Notes under the pieces: model-generated | The model's database searches: none | Seen by the model: only the letters and a program-made list of their open reading frames with translations | Told to the model about the DNA's origin: nothing | Position numbers and translations under genes: made by a program | Source of the DNA: an uncultured Planctomycetaceae bacterium | GTDB lineage: Bacteria; Planctomycetota; Phycisphaerae; SM23-33 | Assembly: GCA_964646915.1 (NCBI GenBank) | Contig: CAZYIH010000001.1 | Location: 1-44,538 of the forward strand | Direction: 5' to 3' | DNA length: 44,538 nucleotides | Shown here: piece by piece, positions 1,118-43,349 of the stretch | How positions within the stretch are numbered: position 1 is the stretch's first letter | Layout of the letters: every line of letters begins with the position of its first letter

Positions 1118-2689
1118 TCAGGCGGTTACGGTGTATTCCATCATTTCATGGGCCTGTTCGAGCACTTCGATGGCTTGGTTGGGCTGATCATTGCGTCGCA
1201 GGAGCTTGCCGTACACCATCAGCAGATCGATCCAGGGCCGATGGCGGACAGTGTCGCGACACAGCGAGATCGCTTCGGCGTCGCGCGTGCCTTCATGGTA
1301 CAGGGCGTAAATCTGGCAGACCCGCAGCCACAGCGCCGGTTCGCCTTGGCGTTTTCGCGCCTCGGCAAACAGGTCGGCTGCATCGGCGAATCGCTCCTCG
1401 TGGAGGGCGGTCTTGGCCTTGGAGAGCACGCTGTTGACCGGGAAGACCGGATCGTCCTCGCCCGGCTGGCCGAGCTGAAGGCCGGCCTGCTCGATCGATT
1501 TGCGGATCGGAAGGTCCGGGTACCGGGCACGGATCGAGCGGAGCGTCTCGGTGGGCAGCACGAAGCCCTGTGTTTCGGGCGAGTCCGACCGCAAGAGCAT
1601 GCCATCCCACTCGGGATGGTTCTCCAGCGGGTACAGTGCTTCCTCGGCCCACAGCGCTTTGATGGTCGCCCGGTCAGGCAGCCAACAGACGTAATCGCCG
1701 TCGGCCTGTTCCAGTGCGGCGTCCAGCCGTTGGGTGGGCGTCAGGTCGTCGGGCACGCCGACTCCGTGGATGGCCGGGGCCTGGACGTTCAGGCAGCGAA
1801 GCTCCGCCGGCGTCATGGGAATGTAAATCTGGAACGGGGTGAAGGTCAGTTGAAGGATCTGTCCCAACTGCGTGATCGACTGCTCGTTGACCTGTGAGGG
1901 AGTCCAGATAATCGAGAGGTCCTTGCAGGTCTTCCAAGGCTTGGGAGGACGACTGTTGCGGATGGCCAGGGTGTTCTGGAAGTACTTGATCTTGTCTTGG
2001 CGCTGTTTGTCCGAGATCCGATCGCTTTCCGATTGGTAGTTCGCGAAGAACTCGCCGGTGACCGCGGGGATCGAGAGGAACGGCGTGAAGAAAGAAATCC
2101 GGCGCATCATGTCCCAGTCGATCAGCACCCGCACGCTCTCGTTGTAGGGGCCGGTCTTCTCCAGCAGGTCGGTCCGATGGACCGCTGCCCCGCCCAGCAC
2201 GAGATTGAAATGCAGCTGCTGCAGCAGGTCGAAATCGCGGTCCACCATCAAGGTCTTGGAGAGCACCTTGCGTCGGCCTCCGGGCATGGGGTAGACAAGC
2301 GTCCGGTACAGCCTCGAGTAGGATGCCTGGTATTCGTCGCTCGCCTCGAGGGCAGCGACGTTGGTCTCGATGTGATGGGGGTAGTGAATATCATCATCGC
2401 CCAGGTAGGCGATGTACTTGCCCTTCACGTAGGGAACCGCTTCGTTGTAGGAATACGCCAGCCCGCGGTTCTGGGCGCGGTCCAGCAGGAGCAGCCTCTC
2501 GTCGCCGAAGGATTCGATGATGTCGCGAACCTCGTCTCCGCCGTCGCGGACCACGATGATCTGCAGGTTCCGGTAGGTCTGGTCCAGCGCGCTGCGCAGG
2601 GCGATGGGCAGATAATGCCTGCGGTTGTACGTCGAGATGATGTAGGTCACCAGCGGCTTGGAGTCCCGCCACGTGTTGGCCTTGGGCAT
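1118..2689 (-). CDS. family-2 (GT-A) glycosyltransferase with C-terminal TPR-like domain
   Basis: N-terminus VTYIISTYNRRHYLPIALRSALDQTYRNLQIIVVRDGG...YLGDDD is a classic GT2 signature with a DxD motif. ATG at 2689 has AGGAG 11 nt upstream. An alternative start at 2740 makes a TAATG overlap with the upstream stop. The C-terminal ~130 aa are TPR-like. Confidence 0.8.
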   Translation of the reverse strand: MPKANTWRDSKPLVTYIISTYNRRHYLPIALRSALDQTYRNLQIIVVRDGGDEVRDIIESFGDERLLLLDRAQNRGLAYSYNEAVPYVKGKYIAYLGDDDIHYPHHIETNVAALEASDEYQASYSRLYRTLVYPMPGGRRKVLSKTLMVDRDFDLLQQLHFNLVLGGAAVHRTDLLEKTGPYNESVRVLIDWDMMRRISFFTPFLSIPAVTGEFFANYQSESDRISDKQRQDKIKYFQNTLAIRNSRPPKPWKTCKDLSIIWTPSQVNEQSITQLGQILQLTFTPFQIYIPMTPAELRCLNVQAPAIHGVGVPDDLTPTQRLDAALEQADGDYVCWLPDRATIKALWAEEALYPLENHPEWDGMLLRSDSPETQGFVLPTETLRSIRARYPDLPIRKSIEQAGLQLGQPGEDDPVFPVNSVLSKAKTALHEERFADAADLFAEARKRQGEPALWLRVCQIYALYHEGTRDAEAISLCRDTVRHRPWIDLLMVYGKLLRRNDQPNQAIEVLEQAHEMMEYTVTA

Positions 2690-2739
2690 GATGTGCTCTG
2701 CTCCTTCCGGTCCATTGTCCGGGACGGGCCCGGCTGGCA

Positions 2740-4176
2740 TTACTCCTGCGGATCTTCGGGCTGGAGGGAAAGCCAATCCTGTTCGAGCTCCAGCAGGACG
2801 TCGTTGAGCCTGGCCATCTGCCTGCGATAAGAGAAGTGCTCGGCCACCATCTCGCGGCATTGCTGCGGGTCGTAAGGCTCGTCGAAAATCCGCTGTTGGA
2901 GCTGGTCGGCCGACGTGAAGCCGAACCACTCAGCCAATTGGCCTGGGGCTTCTCCCTCGGGGACGTAGATGAGGGGCTTGAGCCCGACGGCGAGGCATTC
3001 GGCGATCAGCGGGGTCCGCTCGGCGAAGTAGTTCGTCGCCAGGATGTACTGCTTGTCCAGCAGCCATTCGATCGGGTCGGCGGGCATGCCCACCTGCGAG
3101 ACGGTCTCGCCATCGATGTGCTTGGAGTAGTGCTGTTGCTCGCCGACGCTGAGACGGTCTTCGATGTGTTCCGCTGCCAGCAGGAGCTTCAGCTCGGGAT
3201 GCTCCCGGGCCACCTCCTGGACGAGTTCCAGAAGTTCCGGCCTCATGCGGATATTCTGCAGGCCGATGCACGCGAGGTTGGCGCCGGAAGACTTGGGAGT
3301 CTCATCCAGGGCGTCGAGGTCCACCCCGTTGGGCACGATTACCACGCGGGTCTTCTCGCTGATTCCCCCGACGCGCTGAGAGAGCTTGTCCAGAACCGTC
3401 TGGGAGGGAAGGATCAGTACGTCAACGTTCTCCCACTGGATCTCGTCGATCCAGGGGTTGGAGTCTTTGTACATCTTCAGGCGGCAGACCAGCTTGGCGT
3501 AACCAGCGTTTCGGCTGGCCACCGCGAAGACACTGTCGCACGACTCGAACCAGGCGATGTCCGACCAGTCCAACAGCTCCTGGAGACGCTGGGCCTCCTG
3601 CTCGCTGGACCAGCGGACCTCGAACCGATCGGCCAGGAAATCGCGAATCTCCCCGGCGACGTATTCCTCGCTGGGCAGGTAGAAGAACGAGACCTTCGGG
3701 CGATGCGAGCGGATCACCGCCAGGGCACTCTCGGCGACCTGGTCCTCGGTGTCCGGATAGAGATGCTTGAGAATCACCAGCGCCTCGACCGCCTGAGGTG
3801 TGCGACCCTCGTTGAGCAGGGCAGTGGACACGCGAACGGCCAAGTCCGGCGTGAGGCATTCCTGCTCGGCCAGTTCCCCGAGCATCCTGAGCGTCTGGTC
3901 AGGCTGACCGGCCGCCAGGTGGACCTCCGCGAGGTTGAGCAGCGTCTCGGCCGGGGGCGATTCCCCGGAAGAGACCGCGGCGCGAAGATGGTCGATCGCC
4001 TCTTCGAATCGGCCCAGGGCGTAGAGGATCGCCCCGGCGTCGTTGAGCGCCTCGGTATCGTTGGGCTCGTTGACCAGATGCTTGCGCACCTGCTGAAGGG
4101 CCTGCTCGTAGCGCCCGGCTTCGGCGTGGTCTCGCGCCTCGTTGTAGGCGTCCGGTTTGGTTGTCGACATGCTCAC
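2740..4176 (-). CDS. N-terminal TPR domain fused to a GT-B (GT1/GT4-like) glycosyltransferase-like domain (478 aa)
   Basis: The N-terminal ~130 aa are TPR (AEAGRYEQALQQVRKHL, GRFEEAIDHLRAAV). The C-terminal half has a GT-B-like layout (VIVPNGVDLD..., LLLAAEH..., E-x7-E-like FAERTPLIAECLAVGLKPL). GTG at 4176 lies 8 nt after GGAAGGA; an ATG at 4170 is an alternative start. Confidence 0.7.
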   Translation of the reverse strand: MSMSTTKPDAYNEARDHAEAGRYEQALQQVRKHLVNEPNDTEALNDAGAILYALGRFEEAIDHLRAAVSSGESPPAETLLNLAEVHLAAGQPDQTLRMLGELAEQECLTPDLAVRVSTALLNEGRTPQAVEALVILKHLYPDTEDQVAESALAVIRSHRPKVSFFYLPSEEYVAGEIRDFLADRFEVRWSSEQEAQRLQELLDWSDIAWFESCDSVFAVASRNAGYAKLVCRLKMYKDSNPWIDEIQWENVDVLILPSQTVLDKLSQRVGGISEKTRVVIVPNGVDLDALDETPKSSGANLACIGLQNIRMRPELLELVQEVAREHPELKLLLAAEHIEDRLSVGEQQHYSKHIDGETVSQVGMPADPIEWLLDKQYILATNYFAERTPLIAECLAVGLKPLIYVPEGEAPGQLAEWFGFTSADQLQQRIFDEPYDPQQCREMVAEHFSYRRQMARLNDVLLELEQDWLSLQPEDPQE

Positions 4177-12457: not shown

Positions 12458-13189
12458 CTACATCGCCGCCTGCATCAGCGTGCGGAGACGTTCGTCCTGT
12501 TTTTTCATCATTTTGGTATTGGCTTCGTACATTCGGGTCACCCGCATGAGATCCACGAGCTCCTCGACCATGTTCACGTTGGACTTCTCGGAATATCCCT
12601 GGTGCACCACGGGGTTTTCGAGTTCGTCGGGTTTGATGTCCTCGTCGGTTACCCGGTAGCACCCGTCGCCTTCCGGCGCGAGCACCTTGACGTCCTCGAA
12701 GCCCACGACCTTCATCTTGCCGACTTCTCTGCCGGCGACGTTGATGGTTCCGTCCTGGCTGATGGCGACCTGGCTGAGGGGGTAACGATCGGGGATGTTG
12801 ATCGGTCCGCCCTCGCCGGCAACGGTTCGCCCGCGGAAGTCCACCAGCTTGCCGTTCTCGTCGGTGCGGAAGGTTCCGTTGCGGGTGTAGCGGTCGCCGT
12901 CGGGGGTTTCGATCACGAAGAACCCCTCCCCGTCGATCGCCACGTCGAGCTTCCGCCCGGTGTGGTGCATCGGCCCCTGCGAGAAATCGATGTCGTTTCG
13001 CGCCTGCACCTCGTTCACGAGCGGCTCACCGGAGACGGCCCCCATTCGCTGCATGAGCTTCTGGGAGAAGCTGTTGACGTCCCGCTTGAAGCCCGCCGTG
13101 TTGACGTTGGCCATGTTGTGGGCGATGGCGCGGTACTGCAGCGCCAAGCCCTGCAGGCTCGATGCCGATGGTGAAAAGCTGTTGTTCAT
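12458..13189 (-). CDS. flgF: flagellar proximal rod protein
   Basis: Rod-family N-terminus (AIAHNMANVNTAGFKRD) and C-terminus (GYSEKSNVNMVEELVDLMRVTRMYEANTKMM). 243 aa, immediately upstream of flgG. Confidence 0.85.
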   Translation of the reverse strand: MNNSFSPSASSLQGLALQYRAIAHNMANVNTAGFKRDVNSFSQKLMQRMGAVSGEPLVNEVQARNDIDFSQGPMHHTGRKLDVAIDGEGFFVIETPDGDRYTRNGTFRTDENGKLVDFRGRTVAGEGGPINIPDRYPLSQVAISQDGTINVAGREVGKMKVVGFEDVKVLAPEGDGCYRVTDEDIKPDELENPVVHQGYSEKSNVNMVEELVDLMRVTRMYEANTKMMKKQDERLRTLMQAAM

Positions 13190-14307
13190 GACGTTACCTC
13201 GTCACCGGCGGCGACAGGATCGCTCGCCGGGGTTCGGAACTCGGCCTGCCGACGGGCGGCCTGGTTGGTTTCGCGAGTCAGGTCGGCGATCTCCGCCTCG
13301 TTGAGCCCCATCATCTCGGCCACGAACAGCCATCGACCTTCCGTGGACGTCGGGGCCGAGCGAAGCACGCGCCCGGTGGTCTCGATGACCTTGTCCGGAT
13401 GCATCTCGACGTGAACCAGCACGCGGTAGTTGGGTTTCACTTCCATCGGAACATCCAGCACAAACCCCGGGCCCGCCAGTTCCATCAGCCGACCGGGGAC
13501 GTACTCCGGCTGGGTGTCCAGCGAGTCCTGCAGGTACGGCAGCAGGGCGATCTGGGCGGGCATGTTCACGGCGATCCGTGGGAACGAGCGGCGATTGATC
13601 GGGCGGATCCGTTCGGAATGGTCCAGGTACAGGTTGCCGTCCTGGTAGGTGATCACCCGCGAGTCGAACTCCCAGATGATCCCGTTGTGGGAATACCGCA
13701 CGACCAGGGCCTGCCCGTCGCGGAAGACGGCCATCTTCTTGAGATTCACGATCAGACGATTGTCCGTCACGCCCGCGAGTTCGCCTTCGATCTCGGGCTT
13801 TTCGGGATCCACGAGGATCGAGACGCTTCCGCCCGTGGCGCACTGGCGTGTGGTGGGTCCTTCCGAGAGACGCTTCTCGCTGAAGGAGAGCTTCTCCCGC
13901 ACCAGTTGCAGCTGCGCGTCGATGGCGTTGCGGGCCGTGGCGGGCAGCACGGAGTACCGCTCGCTGTCGTGAAGCCGATCGATGGACGTCTCGAAGGCGT
14001 CGCGGTCGAACAGCAGCGGCGGGTAGCTCACCCCGGCCACGTCGATGACCAGCCGGAGGGCCTGCTGCTCGGCGTCCCGCAGACCGTTGGACCGGCAGAG
14101 CTGGTGGAACTCGTCCCACGCGTGTTTCTCGTTGTATCGCTGGTAGAGCTTCCAGACCCCGTAGATCGTAACGCCCAGCAGGACCAGTCCCGCCACCATA
14201 ACCCACCAGGGGGTCGAGGCGAACAGGCCCTGCCTTGCTCCCTCCCAACGGTCCAGCGCGTTGGCAGCGAGTGTCAGCGTTGTCGAGTTGAGTCCCGCGG
14301 TGGTCAT
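13186..14307 (-). CDS. membrane-anchored PilZ-domain protein (YcgR/FlgZ-like, 373 aa)
   Basis: One N-terminal TM helix (WWVMVAGLVLLGVTIYGVW). PilZ RxxxR motif (RRSFPR), followed ~30 aa later by a degenerate D/NxSxxG motif (ELAGPG). A beta-rich YcgR-N-like segment lies upstream. ATGA overlap with the flgF start. Confidence 0.65.
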   Translation of the reverse strand: MTTAGLNSTTLTLAANALDRWEGARQGLFASTPWWVMVAGLVLLGVTIYGVWKLYQRYNEKHAWDEFHQLCRSNGLRDAEQQALRLVIDVAGVSYPPLLFDRDAFETSIDRLHDSERYSVLPATARNAIDAQLQLVREKLSFSEKRLSEGPTTRQCATGGSVSILVDPEKPEIEGELAGVTDNRLIVNLKKMAVFRDGQALVVRYSHNGIIWEFDSRVITYQDGNLYLDHSERIRPINRRSFPRIAVNMPAQIALLPYLQDSLDTQPEYVPGRLMELAGPGFVLDVPMEVKPNYRVLVHVEMHPDKVIETTGRVLRSAPTSTEGRWLFVAEMMGLNEAEIADLTRETNQAARRQAEFRTPASDPVAAGDEVTS

Positions 14308-18809: not shown

Positions 18810-18825
18810 TGGCACGGAGGTTGCA
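18810..18825 (+). promoter_or_regulatory. sigma54 -24/-12 promoter of the plus-strand early flagellar operon
   Basis: Plus strand reads TGGCACggaggTTGCA, a full match to the consensus. It lies ~95 nt upstream of the ATG at 18921. Confidence 0.65.
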
Positions 18826-18920: not shown

Positions 18921-21900
18921 ATGGCTGAGAAACCAAGCAAAGAACAAGCCCAAGCCGCCAACATGGCCTTCATTCAGCAGATGATGGCCAAGGGCAAGGA
19001 CAGCGTCGAAGTCATCGGAGGCGACGCGCCCGAACCCGCTCCCGAAGGTAACCCTTCCCCCACGCCCGAACAGCCCGCCGCCGATGCCGAGAAGAAAGCT
19101 GCCGACCAGGCCCCGGCCGCCGAAGCGCCGGCCGCCGATGCCGAGATGGACCAGGACGCGATCGACGCGATGATGGCAGCCCGTGCAGAGAAGAAAGCTG
19201 CCGACCCGGCCCCGGCTGAGGAAGCACCTGCCGCCGATGCCGAAATGGACCAGGACGCGATCGACGCGATGATGGCAGCCCGCGCGGAGAAGAAAACTGC
19301 CGACCCGGCCCCGTCCGACGAAGCACCTGCCGACCAGGCCCCGGCTGAGGAAGCGCCGGCCGCCGATGCCGAGATGGACCAGGACGCGATCGACGCGATG
19401 ATGGCAGCCCGTGCGGAGAAGAAAACTGCCGACCAGGCCCCGGCTGAGGAAGAAGCAACGCTCGATCAGGATGCCATTGACGCGATGATGACGTCGAAGT
19501 CCACGGGTGCCCCCGCTGCCGAAGCGCCGGCGGCTGAGACGAACCAGGAAGTCGACCAGGACGCGATCGACGCGATGATGGCGGCCCGCGAAAAGGCCAA
19601 GGCCGAGCCCAAGTCCGAGCCTGTCGCCGATTCCGGCGGGGCGATGGACTCGGACAAGAAGCTCGCAGCCGTCGCCGATTCGCTCTCGAAGGGCAAGTCC
19701 CTGTTAAGGAAGTGGTCGCTGGCCCACTGGCTGTTCTTCTCCAATGGGCTGATGGGGCTCATTCTCGTTCTGTCGCTGTCAATCGCCCTGAGCGGCAAGT
19801 CCAGCCCCGACGAGGCGACGGCTTCCATGCAGGACGAGGAGGGCATGGTTCCCTCGTCCAACGAATCGGTTCGCCTCCCGAAGATGGTGATTCCCGAGGT
19901 CGGACCCACCACCTGGGCCGAGGCGGAGGAAGCCCTGCTTTCCCAGCGGTATGAGCTTGCTTTGGCGCGGTACCGCAAGCTGATGGGATTGGCTGAGGTC
20001 CGCTGGGACAACCAGCGCATCATCGACCTGCTGAAGCTTCGCAGCGGCCAATGCCTGCTGAAACTCGGGCAGGCGGAGAAGGCGCGGAAGCTCTTCATCG
20101 AGGCCGCCCAGAGCGACTCGCCCATCGTGCGGGCATACGCCAACTATCGCCTCGGTCTGCTCCGGGTGGACCAGGGCTTGTACATGCGGGCCCGCACCCG
20201 GGGGTACATGGCCATTGCGGCGCTGGGCATGCTGGATTCGCCCACTCCGCTGGAGGCCGACTGCGACTATCTCATCGCTTCCTGCCTGACGCGGAAGGTG
20301 ATGAGTTTCTTCCGGCCTGACGAGAAAATTCACTGGTCCGACATCCAGAGCAGCGATCCGTTCATGGGGGTCAACGAGGACGCCCTGCTTCGCCTGATCG
20401 CTGAGGGCACCGACAAGACCCGCCGCAGCGTACTGGGCCCGATGCTCAAGCCCGCCACCGAGACGAGCGGGTTTGACGCCACCTGCTGGCGTGCACCTCT
20501 CACTGAGGTCATGCACCGTTTCGAGACGCAGAGCGGGCTGGATGTCAGCTGGGTAGCGGTGGGCATGCCCGTTCGTCGTCGCCCGGTAACGATGTTCCTT
20601 CGCGGCGCGTCGGCCCAGAGGGTCAGCGAGGTCGCCTGCGGCGTGGTCGAACTGGTGGCCAACTTCACCGGATCGAATGTGATGGTTCACGACATCCGTG
20701 CGATGAATTCCGTCGCCCAGGCTCGCGGGCTGCTCACGCGCCAGGCGGTGTCGGCATGGCGGCAGTTCTTCCTGCGTCGGCCTGACGACCCGCGCGTCGC
20801 GCATGGTCATCTGGCTTTGGCTCGGCTGTGCGAGGCCGAGGGCGATCGGGTCTCGGCGGTCCGGGAGTATCAGCTCATCGCCGAGCGTTACCGCGACCAC
20901 CCCGCCGCCCCCGAGGCGATGATGCGGTCGGCCAGGCTCAAGATTGATCTGCTGGACTACGACGGGGCCCGCAAGGATTTGCTGGACCTGCTGGACTCGT
21001 ACCCCGATTTCCACGCGACCGATCAGCTCTACCTTTCGCTGGGCAACGCCACCCTGGAGGCCGGCCTGCACGACGAGGCGTCCGGCGTCTATCGGAAGCT
21101 CTACTATCTGAATCTCTCACCCGAGACGCAGGCCCAGGCGTGCCTGGGAATCGGGCGATGCATGACCCACGAGCGCAACTGGGACGAGGCGATCCGCTGG
21201 CTGGGACGTTACATCGAGCGGACGCCCGAACAGGGCGGCGATGACCTGGTCGACGGAATGGTGCTGATGGCCAAAGCCCATACCAAGCAGGACCGGCTTG
21301 ACGAGGCGCTGAAGTATCTGTACCCGGCGATCTCAATCGACGCGTCCAACCCGCAGAACATCCGTGCGACGCTGGCGTTGGCGGACGTGCAGATTCTCAA
21401 GGACAACCTCGTGCGGGCCACAGGTGCCATCAGCCGCATTCCCAAGCGGTCTGTCCCGAAGGAATACCGGTACGATTACTACCGCGTGAAGTCCGAGGTG
21501 TACGCGGGAATGGGTCTGTTCAACCGGGCTTTGTCCGAGTTGCGGGAAGGCATCAACGAGACCGAGGATCTGACGTTGCGTGCCCGCCTGGGCGTGCAGG
21601 TCGGCAGAATCTACGTTCAGGCCGGCGAGCTGAAAAGTGCTCTCCGCGTGTTGACCGACGTGGTGGGCTCGGGTCAGCTTCTCACCGGTCCGATCGCCCA
21701 GTCGGCTGCCTGCGACCTCGGGCGGGTCTGCGTGAACCTCGGCAAGGCCGACCAGGCTGTCTCCGCGGTCCGCGACGTATTGGCCACCACCGGCGACGAG
21801 GACATCCGAGCCCGTGCCCGGGACATTCTCGGGACGGCCTACGCGATGCGGAAAGAGTTCAACAAGTCGGCCGACGTTCTCAGCGGACGCGCCGAGAAGA

Positions 21901-21923
21901 GAAAGACGGGAGGCTCGCAGTGA
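18921..21923 (+). CDS. 1000-aa bitopic membrane protein: cytoplasmic acidic N-terminus with 5x 'DQDAIDAMM' peptides, one TM helix, large extracytoplasmic TPR-rich domain
   Basis: Long ORF with non-artefactual composition. Five motif copies lie between aa ~76 and ~220. TM helix WSLAHWLFFSNGLMGLILVLSLSIAL (aa ~266-291). TPR-like repeats run through aa ~340-990. An STN/secretin-N-like alpha-beta segment lies at aa ~523-592 (PLTEVMHRFETQSGLDVSW...VVELVANFTGSNVMVHDI). Confidence 0.8.
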   Translation: MAEKPSKEQAQAANMAFIQQMMAKGKDSVEVIGGDAPEPAPEGNPSPTPEQPAADAEKKAADQAPAAEAPAADAEMDQDAIDAMMAARAEKKAADPAPAEEAPAADAEMDQDAIDAMMAARAEKKTADPAPSDEAPADQAPAEEAPAADAEMDQDAIDAMMAARAEKKTADQAPAEEEATLDQDAIDAMMTSKSTGAPAAEAPAAETNQEVDQDAIDAMMAAREKAKAEPKSEPVADSGGAMDSDKKLAAVADSLSKGKSLLRKWSLAHWLFFSNGLMGLILVLSLSIALSGKSSPDEATASMQDEEGMVPSSNESVRLPKMVIPEVGPTTWAEAEEALLSQRYELALARYRKLMGLAEVRWDNQRIIDLLKLRSGQCLLKLGQAEKARKLFIEAAQSDSPIVRAYANYRLGLLRVDQGLYMRARTRGYMAIAALGMLDSPTPLEADCDYLIASCLTRKVMSFFRPDEKIHWSDIQSSDPFMGVNEDALLRLIAEGTDKTRRSVLGPMLKPATETSGFDATCWRAPLTEVMHRFETQSGLDVSWVAVGMPVRRRPVTMFLRGASAQRVSEVACGVVELVANFTGSNVMVHDIRAMNSVAQARGLLTRQAVSAWRQFFLRRPDDPRVAHGHLALARLCEAEGDRVSAVREYQLIAERYRDHPAAPEAMMRSARLKIDLLDYDGARKDLLDLLDSYPDFHATDQLYLSLGNATLEAGLHDEASGVYRKLYYLNLSPETQAQACLGIGRCMTHERNWDEAIRWLGRYIERTPEQGGDDLVDGMVLMAKAHTKQDRLDEALKYLYPAISIDASNPQNIRATLALADVQILKDNLVRATGAISRIPKRSVPKEYRYDYYRVKSEVYAGMGLFNRALSELREGINETEDLTLRARLGVQVGRIYVQAGELKSALRVLTDVVGSGQLLTGPIAQSAACDLGRVCVNLGKADQAVSAVRDVLATTGDEDIRARARDILGTAYAMRKEFNKSADVLSGRAEKRKTGGSQ
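19084..19590 (+). repeat. in-frame coding tandem repeats (99-nt unit, three near-identical copies plus two diverged motif copies)
   Basis: gccgccgatgccga[g/a]atggaccaggacgcgatcgacgcgatgatggcagcccg... recurs at 19131, 19230 and 19359; the third unit carries a 30-nt insertion. Diverged copies lie at ~19458-19496 and ~19549-19590. Confidence 0.9.
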
Positions 21924-22732
21924 GTTCTCATCAGCGAATCTGCCTGCCGGCGATGGTTGTGGTCCTGCTGGGATTGCTGGCCGGGTCCGTCGGCGCCCAG
22001 GACGCCAACAGCGCCGACGCCAACGCCGTGACAGACGTTCGGCTGCCCCAGACGCCGCGGGGGGACGTGAGCATCCACGAGATGATCCGTCGCCTCAATG
22101 CCGCCGGTGCGGGGGTGGGCTTGGCGGACACCGCCCAGTCGATTCCGTCGCCCGACGGTTCGGCAGGGAAGGACCAGGCCCCCTCACACGACGCTTCAGA
22201 AGACAACAAAGAGATCGTCACCGACGCGAACTCCACCCCGGCGGAGCTGCTCGAGCAGATGAAGAAATTCTCGCCGGACACCGGGTCGGCCGGTGGGGAC
22301 TCGAACGACGCGAACACCCCGCGGCGACGCAAGGAGATCGATCTGAAGACCCTCCCGGCGGACACCGTGAAGAACCCCATTCTGCTGGCCGACGTGCTGT
22401 ATCTCGGCGGGCACTGGAAGGCGGCCTCCACGTTTTACGTGATGGTGACCGACGACAAGAAGAAAGGTCACTCCGCCCCCGACCAGGCGTGGGCCCTGTA
22501 CCAACTGGCCAATTGCCAGCGTCGGTTCGACCCGTCCCAGGCGAAGGTCACCTACAAGCGGCTGATCGAGGAATACTCCACCAGCCCGTGGGCGGCGGCT
22601 TCGCAGGTGCAGCAGAAACTGTTGACCTGGAAGCTCTCCAGCAAGCCCGAACAGCTCATCGAGAAGCATCGCAAGACCGGAATGGACGAGGTCAAGAACA
22701 TCCGGGAAGACGCCAGGAAGGGGACCCGTTAA
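21920..22732 (+). CDS. secreted protein with C-terminal TPR/YbgF-like module (270 aa)
   Basis: GTGA overlap with the upstream stop. Signal peptide (ICLPAMVVVLLGLLAGSVGAQD), a low-complexity acidic linker, and the C-terminus ALYQLANCQRRF...YKRLIEEYSTSPWAAASQ, resembling YbgF/CpoB-type TPR. Confidence 0.65.
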   Translation: MSSHQRICLPAMVVVLLGLLAGSVGAQDANSADANAVTDVRLPQTPRGDVSIHEMIRRLNAAGAGVGLADTAQSIPSPDGSAGKDQAPSHDASEDNKEIVTDANSTPAELLEQMKKFSPDTGSAGGDSNDANTPRRRKEIDLKTLPADTVKNPILLADVLYLGGHWKAASTFYVMVTDDKKKGHSAPDQAWALYQLANCQRRFDPSQAKVTYKRLIEEYSTSPWAAASQVQQKLLTWKLSSKPEQLIEKHRKTGMDEVKNIREDARKGTR

Positions 22733-22734
22733 GC

Positions 22735-24111
22735 ATGGCTGAGACGATCTATCCCAATGTGCTGGTGATCGACGACGACCAGGAAGCGACCCGCCGGGTG
22801 ACCGAATCCGTCGCGGCCCGCGGCCTGCGGGGGTTGGTGGTCGAGTCGCCCGACGAAGGGGCCGATCAGCTCGCCGAGGGGCGCTGGGACCTGGTGTTGA
22901 TCGATCTGGACACCGCCGGCGACCGGGGCGAGGAAATGATCCGGTCGATCCGTCGCGAGACACCCGAGACGCCCGCGTTGGTGATGGCCGGCGGCGACGG
23001 TACCCGCGCCGCGATCGGCGCCCTGCGGGCCGGCGCAGACGAAGTGCTCGTCAAGCCCATCGACCGCGACGAACTCGAAGCGATCCTCACCGAAATCCTC
23101 CCGAATCATCCGGTCACGACGGCCGCCGCCGACGAGGTCGGCGTGCAGTGCCTCGTCCACATCGTCGGCAAGAGCGAATCGCTGCAGCGGACGCTGGACC
23201 TGGCCGGCAGGGTTGCCCCCACCAGCGCCCCGGTGCTGCTGACCGGCGAGAGCGGAACGGGCAAGGAGCTGGTGAGCTACCTCATCCACCGTCGCAGCAA
23301 GCGGGCCCGCGGGCCTTACGTGCGGGTCAACTGTGCAGCCTTGAGCGAGTCGCTGCTGGAGAGCGAGCTGTTCGGCCACGAGCGCGGGGCGTTCACCGGC
23401 GCGCACCGGCAGACGCGGGGCAAGTTCGAACAGGCCCACGGCGGCACGCTGTTGCTGGACGAGATCTCCGAGACCGGCCCGCGGTTCCAGGGCCAACTGC
23501 TGCGGATCCTGGAGCATCAGGATTTCCATCGCGTCGGCGGTGAGCAGACGGTGCGGACGAACGTGCGTGTGATCGCGACCACCAACCGCGACCTCGCCGA
23601 GGCCGTCGAGAGCGGCCAGTTTCGCGCGGATCTGTATTACCGGTTGGCCGGCGTTCGCATTCCGCTGCCCGCCCTGCGTGAGCGGCGGGAGGACATCGAG
23701 GAGCTGGTGTGGCACTTCGTGAATATCTTCAGCCCGGAGGTCCGTCGCACGGTCGGCCGAATTTCGCCGGCGATGATGGACCTTCTGGAGCACTGCTCCT
23801 GGCCGGGGAATGTGCGACAGCTCCGCAACGCGGTGCGGACGGCGTTGATTTTCGGTAAGGGCGAGGAGCTCTCGCTGGAGGATGTTCCGCACCTGCAGGC
23901 CGAGCTTGCCGGCGTGACGATGGACGAGGATGACCGTGACGTGCTGCCCCTCCGCGAGATGGAGCGGCAGGCGATTTTCGATGCACTGCGACTGACAAAT
24001 TCCCACCAGGCCAAGGCGGCCCGTCTTCTGGGGATTACCGACCGGACGCTTCGTGACAAGCTCCGGCGATACCGCGAAGACGGCAAGCCCGTACCGATGG
24101 AGGTGGCATGA
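22735..24111 (+). CDS. sigma54-dependent response regulator (NtrC/FleR/FlrC/FlbD-type enhancer-binding protein)
   Basis: REC domain (VLVIDDD..., DLVLIDLD, LVKP). AAA+ domain with Walker A GESGTGKE, the GAFTGA loop (ERGAFTGA) and LLLDEI. C-terminal HTH (AKAARLLGITDRTLRDKLRRY). ATG at 22735 inside the long ORF 21814..24111. Confidence 0.93.
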   Translation: MAETIYPNVLVIDDDQEATRRVTESVAARGLRGLVVESPDEGADQLAEGRWDLVLIDLDTAGDRGEEMIRSIRRETPETPALVMAGGDGTRAAIGALRAGADEVLVKPIDRDELEAILTEILPNHPVTTAAADEVGVQCLVHIVGKSESLQRTLDLAGRVAPTSAPVLLTGESGTGKELVSYLIHRRSKRARGPYVRVNCAALSESLLESELFGHERGAFTGAHRQTRGKFEQAHGGTLLLDEISETGPRFQGQLLRILEHQDFHRVGGEQTVRTNVRVIATTNRDLAEAVESGQFRADLYYRLAGVRIPLPALRERREDIEELVWHFVNIFSPEVRRTVGRISPAMMDLLEHCSWPGNVRQLRNAVRTALIFGKGEELSLEDVPHLQAELAGVTMDEDDRDVLPLREMERQAIFDALRLTNSHQAKAARLLGITDRTLRDKLRRYREDGKPVPMEVA

Positions 24112-30342: not shown

Positions 30343-30981
30343 ATGTCTGGAAAAATGCGATTAATCATCATCGGAGTGATGGGCCTGGCGAGTTTCGTGG
30401 CCTGTTTTGTGCTGTCCCTGGTCACCGGCGCCCCGCCGGCGCCCCCCCAGAGGCAGGAAGGCGTCATGGACAGCGGCGGGGGCGCGGAAGCGGCGATCGG
30501 TAAGCTCCAGAACCTCAGCCCCAAGGAGCGTGAACTGGACGGGTTGATCAAGGAGATGCGCCGCGAGATCAAGGCCTACGAGAGCAAGAAGCGCGACCTG
30601 CGCATGATGGAGCGTCGCATCAGCCTCGCCCAGGAGAGTCTCTCCCAGCAGGCCAAGAACCTCGAAGACCTCCGCATCGAGGTGGCGACTTCGCTGACGC
30701 CGTTGAAAGAGGCGCGGGCCAAGCTCGAGCGCGAGCGGATTCGCATCACCCGCGAAGAGGCCAAGAACCTCCAGCAGATCGCGGGGGTCTACGAGAAGAT
30801 GCAGTCAGACGCCTGTGCCAAGACCATCGCCGAGATGGTCAAGTCCAAACGCCAGAACGTCGCGGTGGGAATTCTGCGCTCGATGGATGAGCGATCAACG
30901 GCGAAGGTGCTCTCCGAGATGTCCGATAAGAAGATGGCTGCGGACCTCAGCGAGATGATGAAACGCGTCCGAGAGGAGTAA
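30343..30981 (+). CDS. YlxF/FlbB/MotE-like flagellar protein (N-terminal TM helix, coiled coil, MgtE-N-like C-terminus)
   Basis: TM helix LIIIGVMGLASFVACFVLSLV, a long coiled coil, then IAGVYEKMQSDACAKTIAEM....AVGILRSMDERSTAKVLSEMSDKKMAADLSEMM, resembling the MgtE intracellular-N/MotE repeat. Same position as ylxF after fliJ in fla/che-type operons. Confidence 0.55.
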   Translation: MSGKMRLIIIGVMGLASFVACFVLSLVTGAPPAPPQRQEGVMDSGGGAEAAIGKLQNLSPKERELDGLIKEMRREIKAYESKKRDLRMMERRISLAQESLSQQAKNLEDLRIEVATSLTPLKEARAKLERERIRITREEAKNLQQIAGVYEKMQSDACAKTIAEMVKSKRQNVAVGILRSMDERSTAKVLSEMSDKKMAADLSEMMKRVREE

Positions 30982-31770: not shown

Positions 31771-32445
31771 GTGGCCAAGAAGAAAGTCCAAGAAGAGAAA
31801 CCGCCCGGCCAGCAATGGCTGGTGACGTTCAGCGACTGCATGACGCTGCTGCTGTGCTTCTTCGTGCTGCTGCTGAGCTTCTCCTCCTTCGACGAGCAAT
31901 CACTCTCGCGGCTGGAGGGCGTGATGGACGTGCGCCACTTCCGCGAGATGACCAAAATCCCTGAGCGCGTGCCCGAGTCCGAGGTGACCCGCCCGAAGAC
32001 TGTGCTCGACCAGACCCGCGAGGGAAGCGACCGGATCATGGACGTCGATCCACAGGTCATCCACCACCCCAAGCGCCGAGATCAGGTGTTCGACAGCGAC
32101 GTCTACAAGGCCAGCAAAACCCTCTATATTCCATCCGATCGCCTCTTCGAGAAGGGCACGGCCCAGTGGAAGCGGGAAGGGCGGGGCATCCTGCGACAGA
32201 TCGCCGAGCTGGTCGTGTTGGTCCCCTCGCATGTCTCCATCGCCGAGAGCAGCCTGGCCCGGGAAGGGCAGGCGACCGACCTGGGGCTGATGCGCTCGAT
32301 GGCGGTCATGAAGTACCTGGTGGTCAAGAGCGGACTGGACGCCGGGCAGTTCGGCGTGATGGGTTCGGACCCCGGACTGATCAACCGTTTCGCCGGTCGA
32401 CGGGTGATTCAGATCTCCCTTCGCAATAAGGGGTTGCTCAAATGA
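31771..32445 (+). CDS. motB: MotB-like stator protein, paralog 1 (224 aa)
   Basis: N-terminus KKKVQEEKPPGQQWLVTFSDCMTLLLCFFVLLL carries the MotB channel helix with the conserved Asp. Short, degenerate OmpA-like C-terminus (DLGLMRSMAVMKYLV). Confidence 0.75.
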   Translation: MAKKKVQEEKPPGQQWLVTFSDCMTLLLCFFVLLLSFSSFDEQSLSRLEGVMDVRHFREMTKIPERVPESEVTRPKTVLDQTREGSDRIMDVDPQVIHHPKRRDQVFDSDVYKASKTLYIPSDRLFEKGTAQWKREGRGILRQIAELVVLVPSHVSIAESSLAREGQATDLGLMRSMAVMKYLVVKSGLDAGQFGVMGSDPGLINRFAGRRVIQISLRNKGLLK

Positions 32446-33203
32446 GCCAGGTCCGCAGGAAAACCGTCACCCCCGACGACGATGACGATGTCCCGCTGTG
32501 GCTGGTGTCGTTCACGGACATGATCACGCTGCTGCTGTCGTTTTTCGTGCTGCTGCAGTCCATCGCTCACATCAAGGATCCGGACCTGTTCTTCATCGGG
32601 CAGGGTTCGTTCCGTCGGGCGGTGCAGAACTTTGGGATTCCCTACTGGCTGGAGGGCTACCCGGATTCGGTTCCGCGGTCCTTCATCCGGCCGAAATTTG
32701 CCATGGAAGAGGACCCGGACGATTACACCAAGTCCCGGTTGTTGGACGCCGAGGATGAGAAGATCCGTGAGATTTTTGACCGTATCCGTCAAGAAATTGA
32801 GACCGACGTCCACGATCATGCCGAGGAAACCATCGAGATTCGACCGACGGCTGTGCAATTCCAGGGACATCGGATCAATGTCTCATCTGAGTCTCGGCGG
32901 GAGCTTGTACGCGTGGCCGAGCAGCTCAGAACAGGCCTAGGTGATCGTAAGGTAAAGGTTTACGTCGTAGGACTTGCGCCGGACCAACCCGCCGGATCGG
33001 TGCGGTGGATGGTCTCGGCCCGTCGGGCCCGCGCGGTGGAAGCGGTCCTGCAACGCATTTTGGCGCGCCAATTGCAATCAGGACGGTGGACGTTGCACTC
33101 GCTCGGCGCGGGCACCAGTCGACGCTGGCAGGAAACGTTCACCGTAAGCGGCTCGCCGACGCACATCGCGATCGCCGTGACAGGAGCGAAATACGATGGC
33201 TGA
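32442..33203 (+). CDS. motB: MotB-like stator protein, paralog 2 (253 aa)
   Basis: ATGA overlap with paralog 1. N-terminus DDDDDVPLWLVSFTDMITLLLSFFVLL repeats the MotB helix with its Asp. OmpA-like remnant at the C-terminus (RWMVSARRARAVEAVL). Confidence 0.75.
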   Translation: MSQVRRKTVTPDDDDDVPLWLVSFTDMITLLLSFFVLLQSIAHIKDPDLFFIGQGSFRRAVQNFGIPYWLEGYPDSVPRSFIRPKFAMEEDPDDYTKSRLLDAEDEKIREIFDRIRQEIETDVHDHAEETIEIRPTAVQFQGHRINVSSESRRELVRVAEQLRTGLGDRKVKVYVVGLAPDQPAGSVRWMVSARRARAVEAVLQRILARQLQSGRWTLHSLGAGTSRRWQETFTVSGSPTHIAIAVTGAKYDG

Positions 33204-33759
33204 CGTGGATTTCGGCATCAAGGACAAGGACAAGCCCAAGGACCCCGAGGCGACCAGGAAGCTGGTTCTGCGCATCGGGCTGATGTTCGGGGTGATCTTG
33301 GTATTCGGCGTGGGTGGGTTCTTCCTGGGCAAGCTGCTCCGGGCCGACCCCAACGCCGCCGCTGCGGCCGAGGACCCCATTCAGCAGGAGGCCGCCCAGG
33401 ACGACGCCAAGGCCCTGGCGAACCTCGATGAGTCCGACGGGTATACGTATCATCAGCTTGAGCCCATCACCGTTACGCTGAATGTCCGCCGGGGGAACCG
33501 TTACCTGCGGACGACGCTGTTGCTGAAGGTCAAGAAGGCCGACTCGAGCATCGTCGAGAAGACGCTCGAAAAGAACAAGGCCGAGATCCAGGACTGGATG
33601 CTGCGGTATCTCTCGAGCCTGACGGTGACCGACGTGCTCGGGCAGAAAAACATCAATCGCATTCGTCGTCGCGTCCGTGACGAACTGAACGAGCTTCTCT
33701 GGCCCAACAGCCGACCTCGCGTCGACGAGGTGCTGCTCAAGGAGTTCAACGTCTCATGA
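33196..33759 (+). CDS. fliL: flagellar basal-body-associated protein
   Basis: Single TM helix, then YHQLEPITVTLNVRRGNRYLRTTLLLKV...AEIQDWMLRYLSS...IRRRVRDELNELL...VDEVLLKEFNVS, the canonical FliL pattern. AGGAG SD. Confidence 0.85.
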   Translation: MADVDFGIKDKDKPKDPEATRKLVLRIGLMFGVILVFGVGGFFLGKLLRADPNAAAAAEDPIQQEAAQDDAKALANLDESDGYTYHQLEPITVTLNVRRGNRYLRTTLLLKVKKADSSIVEKTLEKNKAEIQDWMLRYLSSLTVTDVLGQKNINRIRRRVRDELNELLWPNSRPRVDEVLLKEFNVS

Positions 33760-34823
33760 CCGCACAAGCCGCCCAAGACCAGGACATTCTCGCCTCGCTG
33801 CTGAACGCCATCCAGACCGCACCGCGGCCGGAAGTGAACGAGGAAGAGACCCTTAACGATAACGCGGTGGACTACAACTGGAACGCCCCGTCGCGGTTCC
33901 CGCTTTCGTCCCGCGATGCGCTTCAGAAGACCGCCAAGAAGATCAACCGCAAGGCCGTCGAGGCCCTTGAAGTGTTGACCGACGCCGGATACGTCCCTTC
34001 GGCACCGACCGCGACCGAATATTACGGCCGGCAGATCAACGAGCAGGTCAGCGACTCGGACGTGTACGGAATCACCATCCTCAAGGGCACCGAGGAGGTC
34101 GGGCTGGTCTCGGTCGACCGGGCGATGGGGGCTGAGTGGACCTCGCGAATGCTCGGCGGCGGCGGGATCAATGTCGACGCCGAACGCCCGCTTTCCAGCA
34201 TGGAATCGGCCGTCCTGCAGGACGCCCTGGCGAGCATCGTCAACGCGGCGCTGGAAACACTCACCAGCGCGGGGTCGGCCTCTTTCAAGCCCGGAGAGAA
34301 GGTATGCGCCTCCGAGCTGATTCCCGAACTCGATTCGACCGGTGAATTCTGCAAGATCACCATCCAGGCAGCCGATAACACCATCGCGGAGCTGGTGCTT
34401 GCCAGCGACCTGCTCGAAGCGGCGGCAGGGAGCGCCACAGAGCGCAAAATCGAGCTGTCCCCGGACGAGGCCCGCGCCCGGATGATGGGACACATCCAGC
34501 ACATGCACTTGGGCGGGGCGGTCGAAGTGGGGGTCGCACGAATCTCCATGCGGGACGTGATTGCCCTCGAATCCGGCGACGTGCTCATGCTCAGGCATCG
34601 CCCCGGCGAGCCGGGAAGCCTCTCGGTTGCCGGTCGCGATCTTGCGTATGGCCTGCCGTCGCAATGTCAGGGTCGATACGCCCTGCACATCTCCTCCACG
34701 GTGGAGGAGGAACTGATGGCCGCGGCGAAAGCGCCCGAGGAAGCGCCCGCTGCACAAAATGAAACAGACGATCCGTCGCCCGAACCGGACGGTGACGCAC
34801 CGCACCTGCAGGCGGATGTCTGA
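33756..34823 (+). CDS. fliM: flagellar motor switch protein
   Basis: N-terminal peptide QDQDILASLL (a degenerate EIDAL motif), the middle CheC-like domain, and a C-terminal SpoA-like segment (ISMRDVIALESGDVLML). ATGA overlap with fliL. Confidence 0.9.
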   Translation: MTAQAAQDQDILASLLNAIQTAPRPEVNEEETLNDNAVDYNWNAPSRFPLSSRDALQKTAKKINRKAVEALEVLTDAGYVPSAPTATEYYGRQINEQVSDSDVYGITILKGTEEVGLVSVDRAMGAEWTSRMLGGGGINVDAERPLSSMESAVLQDALASIVNAALETLTSAGSASFKPGEKVCASELIPELDSTGEFCKITIQAADNTIAELVLASDLLEAAAGSATERKIELSPDEARARMMGHIQHMHLGGAVEVGVARISMRDVIALESGDVLMLRHRPGEPGSLSVAGRDLAYGLPSQCQGRYALHISSTVEEELMAAAKAPEEAPAAQNETDDPSPEPDGDAPHLQADV

Positions 34824-42244: not shown

Positions 42245-42499
42245 ATGGCCCCCGAGCTGGGACATTCCGTCAGTCGGCTGAGTAACGCCACGGAGATTCA
42301 TCGCCTCGAATCGGTCGCCCATGCCTCCGACGAGGTCCGCCGCCGACGGGACCGCCAGGAGCAGCAGAAGAAACGACAGAAGAAAAAGGATCAGGAGCAA
42401 CCTGCCTCCGACGAGGCCGACGAGATGGAAGGCAGGCTCCTGCCCGCACCGGACGACGACTATGACGATGGCGAAACGCACCTGGACGTTCTGGTGTAA
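42245..42499 (+). CDS. small highly charged hypothetical protein (84 aa)
   Basis: ATG 4 nt after the fliA stop. Basic stretch RRRRDRQEQQKKRQKKKDQEQ, followed by an acidic tail. No family recognised; coding status rests on position and frame only. Confidence 0.4.
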   Translation: MAPELGHSVSRLSNATEIHRLESVAHASDEVRRRRDRQEQQKKRQKKKDQEQPASDEADEMEGRLLPAPDDDYDDGETHLDVLV

Positions 42500-42525
42500 C
42501 CCGCCCACAGGAGAGAACGACAATC

Positions 42526-42777
42526 ATGGATGTGCTGAAGAAAAACAAAGTGACCGCCGCCGGACGGCGACCGTTGGGTGCGGCAGCGTCTGTACCGACG
42601 CCCGAGAAGGCCTCGTCGGCCGACTTGCCCGACGAGGCACCCGGGGCGGTGGATCCGGCATCTGCCCCTTGCGGCGAGGCCCGTGCGACCGTCCATCCGC
42701 AGGAGGACGGAACGTGCGTCATCGAAGTGACCTGCTCGTGCGGAAATGTAATCCAGATCCAGTGCATTACCCAGTGA
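42526..42777 (+). CDS. small Cys-containing hypothetical protein (83 aa)
   Basis: GGAGAG SD 10 nt upstream of the ATG. Disordered N-terminus, then a compact C-terminus PCGEARATVHPQEDGTCVIEVTCSCGNVIQIQC with five Cys. No family recognised. Confidence 0.5.
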   Translation: MDVLKKNKVTAAGRRPLGAAASVPTPEKASSADLPDEAPGAVDPASAPCGEARATVHPQEDGTCVIEVTCSCGNVIQIQCITQ

Positions 42778-42806
42778 ACTTCCTCCTACAACCAGGAGCA
42801 TCAACC

Positions 42807-43337
42807 ATGAAACGCATTGCCCTTTCGCTTGGACTTGTCGCCCTCGTGGCTGTTTCGGTCGGCTGTGAGCAGGTGACCATCAAGGCCGGTCCCGATCCTG
42901 ACGACATCGCCTCCGAGCAGGACCCGTACGCCGGCGAGCCGATCGGCTACCTGCCGTCCACGAGCATCAAGGGCGGCGAGCAGTCCCGCAACGCCGACTC
43001 CGCCGTCGCATCGGCCATGGAAATTCAGGAAAAGTACGCCAAGGCCATGGAACGCATGATGGAGATGCAGCGGCAGGTGGTCGCCATGGAGAAGGCCAAC
43101 CACGAGCTGGCGAAAAAGCTGGCGGCGATGGAATCGGCCCGGACGCAGGACGCCCGCGAGCTGAAGGACGCCAACGAACGCCTTTTCGAGATGAAAAAAG
43201 ACCTCGAAACGTGGAAGAAGAACGTCTTCGGCTTCCAGGGCGAGATGCGCCAAGCGCTGGTGGCCATCATGAAATCGCAGGAACGCGTCCTGAAGCTGCT
43301 CGGAGCTGAGCAGATCAGTGTGAACCGGTCCAATTAG
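42807..43337 (+). CDS. coiled-coil lipoprotein (176 aa), unknown function
   Basis: ATG at 42807 (AGGAG SD) inside ORF 42321..43337. Signal peptide with lipobox-like LVALVAVSVGC. The C-terminal ~110 aa are heptad-rich (AMERMMEMQRQVVAMEKANHELAKKLAAMESAR...). Confidence 0.65.
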   Translation: MKRIALSLGLVALVAVSVGCEQVTIKAGPDPDDIASEQDPYAGEPIGYLPSTSIKGGEQSRNADSAVASAMEIQEKYAKAMERMMEMQRQVVAMEKANHELAKKLAAMESARTQDARELKDANERLFEMKKDLETWKKNVFGFQGEMRQALVAIMKSQERVLKLLGAEQISVNRSN

Positions 43338-43349
43338 CCCGGAGTCCCC

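Follow-up and report, generated by a model that had tools for sequence, protein, structure and literature searches.

Why should the first gene of a flagellar operon encode a membrane protein whose cytoplasmic tail repeats, five times over, a peptide resembling the docking site of the chemotaxis signal on the flagellar switch? The question is raised by a stretch of 44,538 nucleotides (hereafter the window) from an uncultured Planctomycetaceae bacterium (Phycisphaerae, SM23-33; GenBank assembly GCA_964646915.1, contig CAZYIH010000001.1), in which an open reading frame at 18921-21923 of the plus strand codes for a bitopic protein of 1000 amino acids (aa), composed of a peptide array predicted to be cytoplasmic, a transmembrane (TM) helix and a periplasmic region where tetratricopeptide repeats (TPR) flank a domain resembling secretin N0. 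The N-terminal peptide of FliM and the C-terminal peptide of CheZ are experimentally established docking sites of phosphorylated CheY (CheY~P), and CheY~P is not known to act on the motor by any route other than the single docking peptide present on each FliM or FliY subunit. The comparisons described below support the placement of the planctomycete peptides in the same motif class as the CheY-binding N-terminal (EIDAL) peptide of FliM and FliY, and it appears probable that they serve as receiver-domain docking motifs. What such an array may do on a membrane-anchored protein that is not part of the switch is considered in the Discussion.

Results

The peptide DQDAIDAMM is present in the protein exactly five times, as a sequence-only reading of this DNA had counted, at aa 77, 110, 153, 182 and 212, against 2.5 × 10−7 occurrences expected by chance from the composition of the N-terminal region. 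Copies 1, 2 and 3 (aa 77-85, 110-118 and 153-161; 19149-19175, 19248-19274 and 19377-19403, plus strand) are contained in a DNA tandem repeat at 19085-19442 (+), to which Tandem Repeats Finder assigned scores of 412 and 448 with 90–94% matches; it comprises a 99-nt unit at 19085-19332, present 2.5 times with 90% matches, and another of 129 nt at 19198-19442, and one repeat unit of the array reads AADAEMDQDAIDAMMAARAEKK. The earlier description of these three copies as near-identical DNA units holds as far as the tandem repetition is concerned, and had to be amended for copy 3, which is offset by 129 nt rather than 99 nt because of a 30-nt insertion. Copies 4 (aa 182-190; 19464-19490, +) and 5 (aa 212-220; 19554-19580, +) had been described as diverged, and indeed their DNA flanks are only 30–57% identical to those of the other copies, with the exact nonapeptide kept in both. 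Compared with the other copies, copy 4 has four synonymous and no non-synonymous changes. Since these changes are all synonymous and the motif is retained in orthologues while the linkers diverge, the motif is judged to be under selection.

The orthologues that we recovered (P0002 and P0004-P0008) are 30–63% identical to the target protein over the periplasmic part, and all six of them possess 3–10 copies of [MLV]-D-Q-D-A-I-D-[AQ]-M-[ML], separated by acidic Ala/Pro linkers that cannot be aligned. The most distant of them, P0008 (30% identical), also contains copies of SMSQDDIDAML, the canonical S-Q form. The locus L004 (10001-12754, 918 aa) was left out of the estimate of copy-number variation, having an assembly gap and X residues. 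The nearest relatives of the window are metagenome-assembled genomes labelled Phycisphaerae or Planctomycetaceae, with protein identity of up to 96%, and their public assemblies break or have gaps right in the repeat region (L003/L005 and L002/L008 hold the halves of the gene on different contigs), for which reason copy numbers taken from such genomes cannot be relied on and annotations frequently list the gene as partial.

Arrays of the same kind were sought by pattern scans and by an exhaustive phmmer search with aa 60-240 of the target. The peptide [LM]-[DS]-Q-x-x-[IV]-D-A-[LM]-[LM] was found to form tandem arrays in FliY and FliN of other phyla, the S-Q and D-Q forms being mixed within one array. 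In FliY of rumen Clostridiales (L009:7778-9559 and L016:9353-11137; NF005995, 289 bits) six copies (PLSQAAIDALMNGGD, PLDQAAVDALLHGGD and others) occupy the linker that joins the CheC-like domain to the SPOA domain, the CheY-docking peptide usual at the N-terminus is absent, and the operon places cheY between fliY and the gene of a FliM that starts MADVLSQSQIDELL, with the canonical VLSQSQIDELL. FliN of SAR324 (L010; TIGR02480, 94.9 bits) carries four to six N-terminal copies, and a 605-aa FliN (P0014) has MSDILSQDELDALL at its start, after which come some twelve copies of LLDQDQLDALF. Two copies stand at the end of P0010, a fragment named CheZ by JGI, which gave no match when compared with PDB sequences.

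A position matrix was built from the FliY and FliN arrays only and used to scan 34 proteins of the window (10,519 positions). The five target motifs took ranks 1–5 with 21.6–26.4 bits (22.8 bits for each of copies 1–3, 26.4 for copy 4 and 21.6 for copy 5), scores that for the target are partly circular (see Discussion), and the highest score reached when the tail was shuffled 2000 times was 10.1 bits. The same matrix gave 28.9 bits for E. coli FliM 5-17 and 19.0 bits for VASQDQVDDLLDS, the C-terminal peptide of E. coli CheZ (sequence taken from the genome), which was the best site in that protein. The core hydrophobic-[S/D]-Q-x-x-[I/V/L]-D-x-[L/M]-[L/M/F] is present in all five target copies. 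The likeness to the FliM N-terminus proposed in the sequence-only reading is therefore borne out by arrays of the same class in FliY and FliN and by matrix scores comparable to those of the E. coli FliM and CheZ peptides. A profile of the concatenated motif units retrieved from a collection of 5.8 billion proteins only three tiny fragments (E from about 3 × 10−3 to 10−2), the profile being too weak at that database size.

Two other groups of proteins came to light with these arrays. The first, from Acanthopleuribacter, Sulfidibacter and metagenomes (P0015, P0017 and P0018; L006:9905-12604, L007:9656-12181 and L015:9989-11278), starts with KLSQEEISMLL, thereafter repeats LDQAAIDAML 6–23 times and has at its C-terminus a conserved domain of about 170 aa (VPNxLGA.TLSP...RW..WF...FD.ETL) that has no match in Pfam or NCBIfam; the neighbouring genes are non-flagellar, and the C-terminal domain may be a new CheY-targeted effector domain. 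The second is an unrelated membrane-tethered array (L019:3176-5191, encoding P0009; L012:9881-11950; L017:2621-3028) in which the peptide occurs 3–6 times in an acidic N-terminal tail that is followed by a single TM helix and, in the periplasm, a Big_9/cadherin-like (Ig-like) domain, and in L019 its gene comes after two flgO genes, which are flagellar periplasmic-disk genes.

The FliM protein of the window (33756-34823, +) starts MTAQAAQDQDILASLLNA and, as had been noticed before, keeps only a degenerate version of the peptide at aa 6-18 (AQDQDILASLLNA), in which the Asp of the I-D pair is missing; with 4.9 bits it ranks sixth among the 10,519 positions scanned. Four FliM orthologues of the clade, 51–99% identical, keep this N-terminal peptide as QDQDILASLLNAI or IQDQQILQQLLNAI, with the Q and the LLN in canonical register and again without the Asp, so that in this clade the canonical core sits on the target protein and not on FliM. 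The window FliM is very divergent overall: the SPOA domain at its C-terminus is all that Pfam recognises, and its TIGR01397 score of 41.6 bits is far below the cut-off of 219.6. The motif was not found in the FliN of the window, again in agreement with the sequence-only reading.

An AlphaFold2 model of the target was built on seven orthologues. Residues 1-264, which consist of 29% Ala and 22% Asp plus Glu and have a net charge of −33, are predicted to be disordered, with a predicted local distance difference test score (pLDDT) of 30–50. Apart from the extreme N-terminus, helices are predicted in this region only at aa 80-89 and 155-162, on motif copies 1 and 3, and the target motifs are in this way placed in a disordered context with local helical propensity. 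The remaining helix is an amphipathic one at aa 8-22 (AANMAFIQQMMAKG; 18942-18986, +), a segment kept in P0004, P0005 and P0016; it is possibly a sixth, degenerate copy of the motif or else a separate docking element. A single TM helix, predicted to be N-in/C-out, follows at aa 265-290 (19713-19790, +), with a K/R-rich flank on its N-side and an acidic flank on its C-side. The N-terminus with the array is predicted to be cytoplasmic because the K/R residues stand on the N-side of the helix (positive-inside rule). In the middle of the helix lies an S-N-G sequence whose Asn275 (19743-19745) is invariant in the seven orthologues, which suggests oligomerisation mediated by the TM helix.

The periplasmic region comprises two TPR blocks, aa 332-464 (19914-20312, +; pLDDT about 80–94; Pfam TPR_2) and aa 598-987 (20712-21881, +; pLDDT about 85–93; Pfam TPR_19, TPR_14, TPR_12, TPR_7 and TPR_8). 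Pfam recognises in the target nothing but TPR families (aa 376-990), NCBIfam searches with aa 321-1000 returned generic TPR, and so did a profile search of the PDB with the 7-sequence alignment. Between the blocks, within the TPR solenoid, an alpha/beta domain resembling secretin N0/STN is inserted at aa 508-590 (20442-20690, +), modelled with pLDDT of about 90 in the whole protein and of 87 alone. Its top Foldseek matches are almost all secretin N0 domains (InvG, MxiD, EscC, PilQ, GspD), DotD and the TonB-transducer signalling (STN) domains of FpvA/PupB, with E of only 0.02–0.3, probability up to 0.99 and root-mean-square deviation of 2–3.5 Å over 70–80 residues. In the model the insert has the beta-alpha-beta-beta-alpha-beta fold of N0/signalling domains. 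The identification is by fold comparison only: Pfam STN (PF07660) gives no hit in the target (in the split homologues described below it reaches 25.2 and 18.6 bits against a cut-off of 28.4), and a profile of the insert found no match among PDB sequences. The overall layout that had been read from the sequence, with one TM helix followed by a periplasmic TPR region containing an STN/secretin-N-like module, thus holds. In the databases proteins of this family are named 'hypothetical', 'TPR repeat protein' or 'YciM'.

The architecture recurs with flagellar loci in relatives, in an intact and in a split version. In the intact version the target gene, the gene of a protein of about 270 aa and that of a sigma-54 regulator form a triad followed by flgB and preceded by the divergent fliK, and this synteny is kept down to 30% identity. 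The second protein of the triad (270 aa; 21920-22732, +) has a signal peptide and one TPR_6/YbgF-like repeat; its start overlaps the stop codon of the target, and it adjoins every target orthologue. The third is a sigma-54-dependent response regulator of the FlbD/FlgR-like type with REC, AAA+ and HTH_8 domains (22735-24111, +), kept in L001-L004, L013 and L014; no regulator of this type adjoins the relative in L011. The split version belongs to another Planctomycetota lineage (L020), where P0021, consisting of the array, the TM helix and a short TPR region (hhalign with the target, E 2.5 × 10−13), is followed by a 669-aa STN-TPR protein that aligns with target aa 515-990 (hhalign E 5 × 10−6, probability 86%) and matches Pfam STN with E 1.4 × 10−5 and 25.2 bits, under the cut-off. 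The motA and motB genes lie two small genes 3' of the latter. Split planctomycete relatives begin with MSQEEIDALF or PLSQNDIDALL. The 244-aa protein of the split locus has no similarity to the 270-aa neighbour of the target. Two genes 5' of the split array protein a response regulator of 239 aa is encoded (L020:6730-7449; receiver and a C-terminal region of about 120 aa), which is a candidate ligand of the split array.

The window is a nearly complete flagellar gene island with a G+C content of 63.7%. Its minus strand carries fliK, flgD, flgE, a conserved gene of 373 aa, flgF, flgG, flgA, flgH, flgI, a flgJ-like gene, flgN, flgK and flgL. The plus strand begins with the triad and continues through flgB, flgC, fliE, fliF, fliG, fliH, fliI and fliJ to a 212-aa FlbB-like gene, motA, two motB paralogues, fliL, fliM, fliN, fliO, fliP, putative fliQ and fliR, flhB, flhA and fliA. 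The earlier claim that the 1000-aa frame leads a sigma-54 operon is sustained by a perfect −24/−12 consensus (TGGCACGGAGGTTGCA; 18810-18825, +) about 95 nt 5' of the target start codon. There are only two perfect sigma-54 sites in the window, the other being at 18344-18329 on the minus strand ahead of fliK; both stand back to back in the fliK/target intergenic stretch, and the divergent pair is kept in five orthologous loci (L004, L005, L008, L013 and L014). Of flhF and flhG, said earlier to be missing from their usual slot, neither lies between flhA and fliA, fliA coming directly after flhA; the statement applies to the window.

The 212-aa gene between fliJ and motA (30343-30981, +) encodes a candidate E-ring protein of the FlbB/FlgY/MotE type, in which a TM helix at the N-terminus is combined with a long coiled coil and a head resembling MgtE_N, an architecture that was read from the sequence (Pfam MgtE_N weak; NCBIfam collar_FlbB E 0.026). 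The FlbB/FlgY/MotE family shares this architecture and has the TPR partners PflA, FlcB, MotC and MotK (PMC13023049). Such proteins are not known to have been annotated in planctomycetes. After the single motA two MotB paralogues stand in a row (31771-32445 and 32442-33203, +), the first (224 aa) matching the MotB plug only, without an OmpA domain, and the second (253 aa) matching the plug and weakly OmpA. The conserved gene of about 375–395 aa between flgE and flgF is found in every related locus (window 13186-14307, −; L013:4496-5683; L014:4432-5613), and for that of the window the sole match, to PilZNR (YcgR-like), is weak. Just beyond flgL/flgK, where the island ends on the left, two TPR-containing glycosyltransferase genes (GT2 and GT4-like; 1118-4176, −) may serve flagellin glycosylation. 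Located 3' of fliA (42321-44036, +), the genes of a 338-aa coiled-coil protein and of a 228-aa protein with a weak LpoB-like match, to which no family could be assigned, fill the slot that flhF/flhG or che genes take in other phyla.

Discussion

We are inclined to regard the target protein as motor-associated. Association with the motor or stator is argued for by the conserved flagellar synteny, the split version near motAB, the flgO-linked array and the FlbB-type candidate, which has TPR partners elsewhere. The TPR solenoid of about 700 residues with its N0/STN-like insert would make a periplasmic protein–protein scaffold, probably joined by the translationally coupled 270-aa protein and placed around the basal body beside the E-ring and the stator units, as are PflA/PflB, FlcA/FlcB and MotC/MotK elsewhere. 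Oligomerisation may be driven by Asn275 in the TM helix. Each subunit would then let an acidic tail of 260 residues with five docking helices hang into the cytoplasm beside the C-ring, and several copies of the protein per motor would create a cloud of CheY~P docking sites at the membrane. The chain between a motif and the membrane measures 44–188 residues, which by polymer scaling may correspond to a reach of about 5–15 nm. The use of the array would most likely be to capture and concentrate CheY~P at a motor whose FliM N-terminal peptide is weakened; equally possible is that it buffers CheY~P. We give about an even chance to the proposal in this form, namely that a motor-associated periplasmic scaffold docks CheY~P on a multivalent cytoplasmic array and so concentrates or buffers it near FliM. 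The data show the architecture, the selection on the motif, its class, the flagellar and stator gene context and the sigma-54 control; that the protein resides at the motor, that it binds CheY~P, and whether the signal is enhanced or damped are matters of inference.

A number of observations weigh against this proposal. The matrix score of the target is partly circular, as the FliN and FliY arrays were retrieved by their resemblance to it, which is not the case for the scores of E. coli FliM and CheZ or for the identities of the carrier proteins. A profile of the mixed arrays has FliM 6-17 as its top match among 177,635 PDB sequences, but with E 0.35, and a profile of the motifs of the target family alone fails to recover FliM among PDB sequences. 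The connection with EIDAL is accordingly an indirect one, made through the FliN and FliY arrays, and not a direct significant match. The Glu of E-I-D-A-L is replaced by Ala in the target motif (D-A-I-D); the FliY and FliN arrays and the CheZ peptide likewise do without it (QAAID, QDQVD). The periplasmic part has no specific homology to PflA, PflB or FlcA (NCBIfam FlcA_CTERM E 0.41 with aa 321-1000), and the 50 PDB matches listed by Foldseek for the whole model are generic TPR and include no motor-scaffold chain. There is no cheY gene within the window, and the presence of the ligand in the genome is an assumption. The fused and the split versions alike have a response-regulator gene as a neighbour, which makes another receiver possible as the ligand. 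Finally, EIDAL peptides also bind FlhG in some species (preprint 10.1101/2022.04.21.489128).

The last point leads to an unlikely alternative, in which the ligand of the array is an FlhG/MinD-type ATPase (or FlhF-FlhG partners) and the protein acts as a polar landmark or flagellar-number scaffold similar in function to HubP/FimV. In Shewanella the EIDAL peptide of FliM/FliY is necessary and sufficient for FlhG binding and affects the flagellar number (preprint 10.1101/2022.04.21.489128), and binding has been described in both Shewanella and Bacillus (the same preprint; review PMC12826062). The target gene is first in an early operon (MS-ring, C-ring and export genes), the flhA-fliA slot lacks flhF and flhG, a bitopic protein whose cytoplasmic region is acidic and rich in repeats is reminiscent of HubP, and multivalency would suit a dimeric ATPase. 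However, the same arrays occur in FliY, which is a CheY-P phosphatase, in FliN and in the CheZ-annotated fragment, where CheY is the natural ligand, and the matrix picks up the C-terminal peptide of CheZ, for which no binding of FlhG is known. The motif is also devoid of the Glu whose mutation affects the flagellar number in Vibrio (preprint 10.1101/2022.04.21.489128), and the target has no LysM domain and only a sub-cut-off FimV_Cterm match, on the periplasmic side.

The array may instead bind the receiver of the co-operonic sigma-54 regulator, which would be held at or released from the membrane according to the assembly state sensed in the periplasm, a checkpoint resembling FliX that we consider distinctly unlikely. 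EIDAL-type peptides bind the alpha4-beta5-alpha5 face of a receiver domain, and in NtrC-family activators that face controls oligomerisation. The triad is kept to 30% identity, the whole operon including the regulator gene is sigma-54 dependent, and the split version also has a response-regulator gene two genes to its 5' side. On the other hand, EIDAL-type peptides are not known to bind receivers other than CheY, the arrays of FliN and FliY point to CheY, the L011 relative lacks an adjoining regulator of the triad type, and shared early-class expression alone may explain the co-operonic placement.

A static structural tether to FliN, FliM or FliG of the C-ring, without any signalling role, which would link the scaffold to the rotor or the export apparatus in assembly, seems improbable to a still greater degree: judging from its chain length the tail should be able to reach the C-ring, but a static link from a membrane-fixed scaffold to a turning rotor is mechanically implausible and the known ligands of the motif class are soluble. 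That the repeats are a recently expanded low-complexity linker devoid of specific function, with a coincidental likeness to EIDAL, as the sequence-only reading had itself allowed for and as the near-identical DNA of three copies and the failure of the family-only profile to find anything significant among PDB sequences might suggest, is hardly credible and was rejected, given the synonymous-only change in copy 4, the exact nonapeptide between diverged flanks, the conservation of the motif and not of the linkers in orthologues at 30% identity, the low chance expectation, the matrix scores and the recurrence of the arrays in switch proteins.

If CheY~P does bind the array, as we propose, evolution could adjust how the signal is concentrated or buffered locally beside the motor through a separate component whose copy number can vary, and chemotaxis would be physically linked to the periplasmic accessory structures seen by cryo-electron tomography, which have hitherto been without a known signalling role. 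Arrays of the peptide, which recur in FliN, FliY, membrane-anchored proteins near flgO or motAB and proteins with the new C-terminal domain, may also serve as a searchable signature for new CheY targets. A bolder extension, to which we assign only a small probability, is that the chemotaxis signal is delivered to the stator side: the array would recruit CheY~P or a CheY-like regulator to a transmembrane scaffold contacting the stators and the E-ring, and its occupancy would alter the engagement of the stators or the speed, as a brake or by chemokinesis, or would be passed on through the membrane. This route would supplement or replace the FliM switch with its decayed docking peptide. Tandem CheY-docking arrays would then be an unrecognised modular element in several phyla, placing CheY~P at chosen sites.

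As regards known systems, we found no description of such arrays or of this architecture in the literature searched on arrays and on planctomycete motors, in line with the claim of the sequence-only reading that no characterised component is known to have this architecture. With HubP/FimV it shares a bitopic topology and a long acidic repeat-containing cytoplasmic region, which in those proteins recruits the flagellar regulators FlhG and FlhF. In contrast to them, its topology is reversed, the cytoplasmic part being N-terminal, its repeats are a defined EIDAL-type peptide, and Pfam finds no LysM domain in it; FimV_Cterm (TIGR03504) matches with 28.5 bits, below the cut-off of 30.65, in the periplasmic TPR region. 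An identification of the target as HubP/FimV was rejected on the absence of LysM, the reversed topology and the FimV motif below the cut-off.

A large periplasmic TPR region is common to the target and to PflB/PflA of Campylobacterota, FlcA/FlcB of the spirochaete collar and MotC/MotK of alpha-proteobacteria. The target is membrane-anchored as PflB is, and its gene context is that of PflA/PflB-type scaffolds, with flagellar genes, a candidate E-ring protein of the FlbB/FlgY type and a split relative near motAB. It differs from all of these proteins in the inserted N0/STN-like domain, and we know of no periplasmic scaffold that bears a cytoplasmic CheY-docking array.

The EIDAL peptides of FliM/FliY and the CheZ peptide have in common with the target the core [LM]-[SD]-Q-x-x-[IV]-D-x-[LM]-[LM], which is helix-forming and placed in a disordered segment; in FliM, CheY binds at the EIDAL peptide (PMC6946799). 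The target motif differs from EIDAL in having Ala for the Glu of E-I-D and Met-Met for Leu-Leu. EIDAL and CheZ peptides occur singly, at one end of a protein that has a SPOA domain or is a phosphatase, whereas in the target family there are five to ten, and in the target they are internal (aa 77-220) on a membrane-anchored non-switch protein that has no SPOA or CheC domain. The closest parallel is provided by the FliY and FliN array proteins (L009/L016, L010 and P0014), where the same tandem peptide arrays, of 4–15 copies, are likewise found in disordered linkers. In those proteins the array is joined to cytoplasmic C-ring (SPOA) and CheC-like domains, whereas in the planctomycete protein it is joined, through a TM helix, to what would be a periplasmic scaffold.

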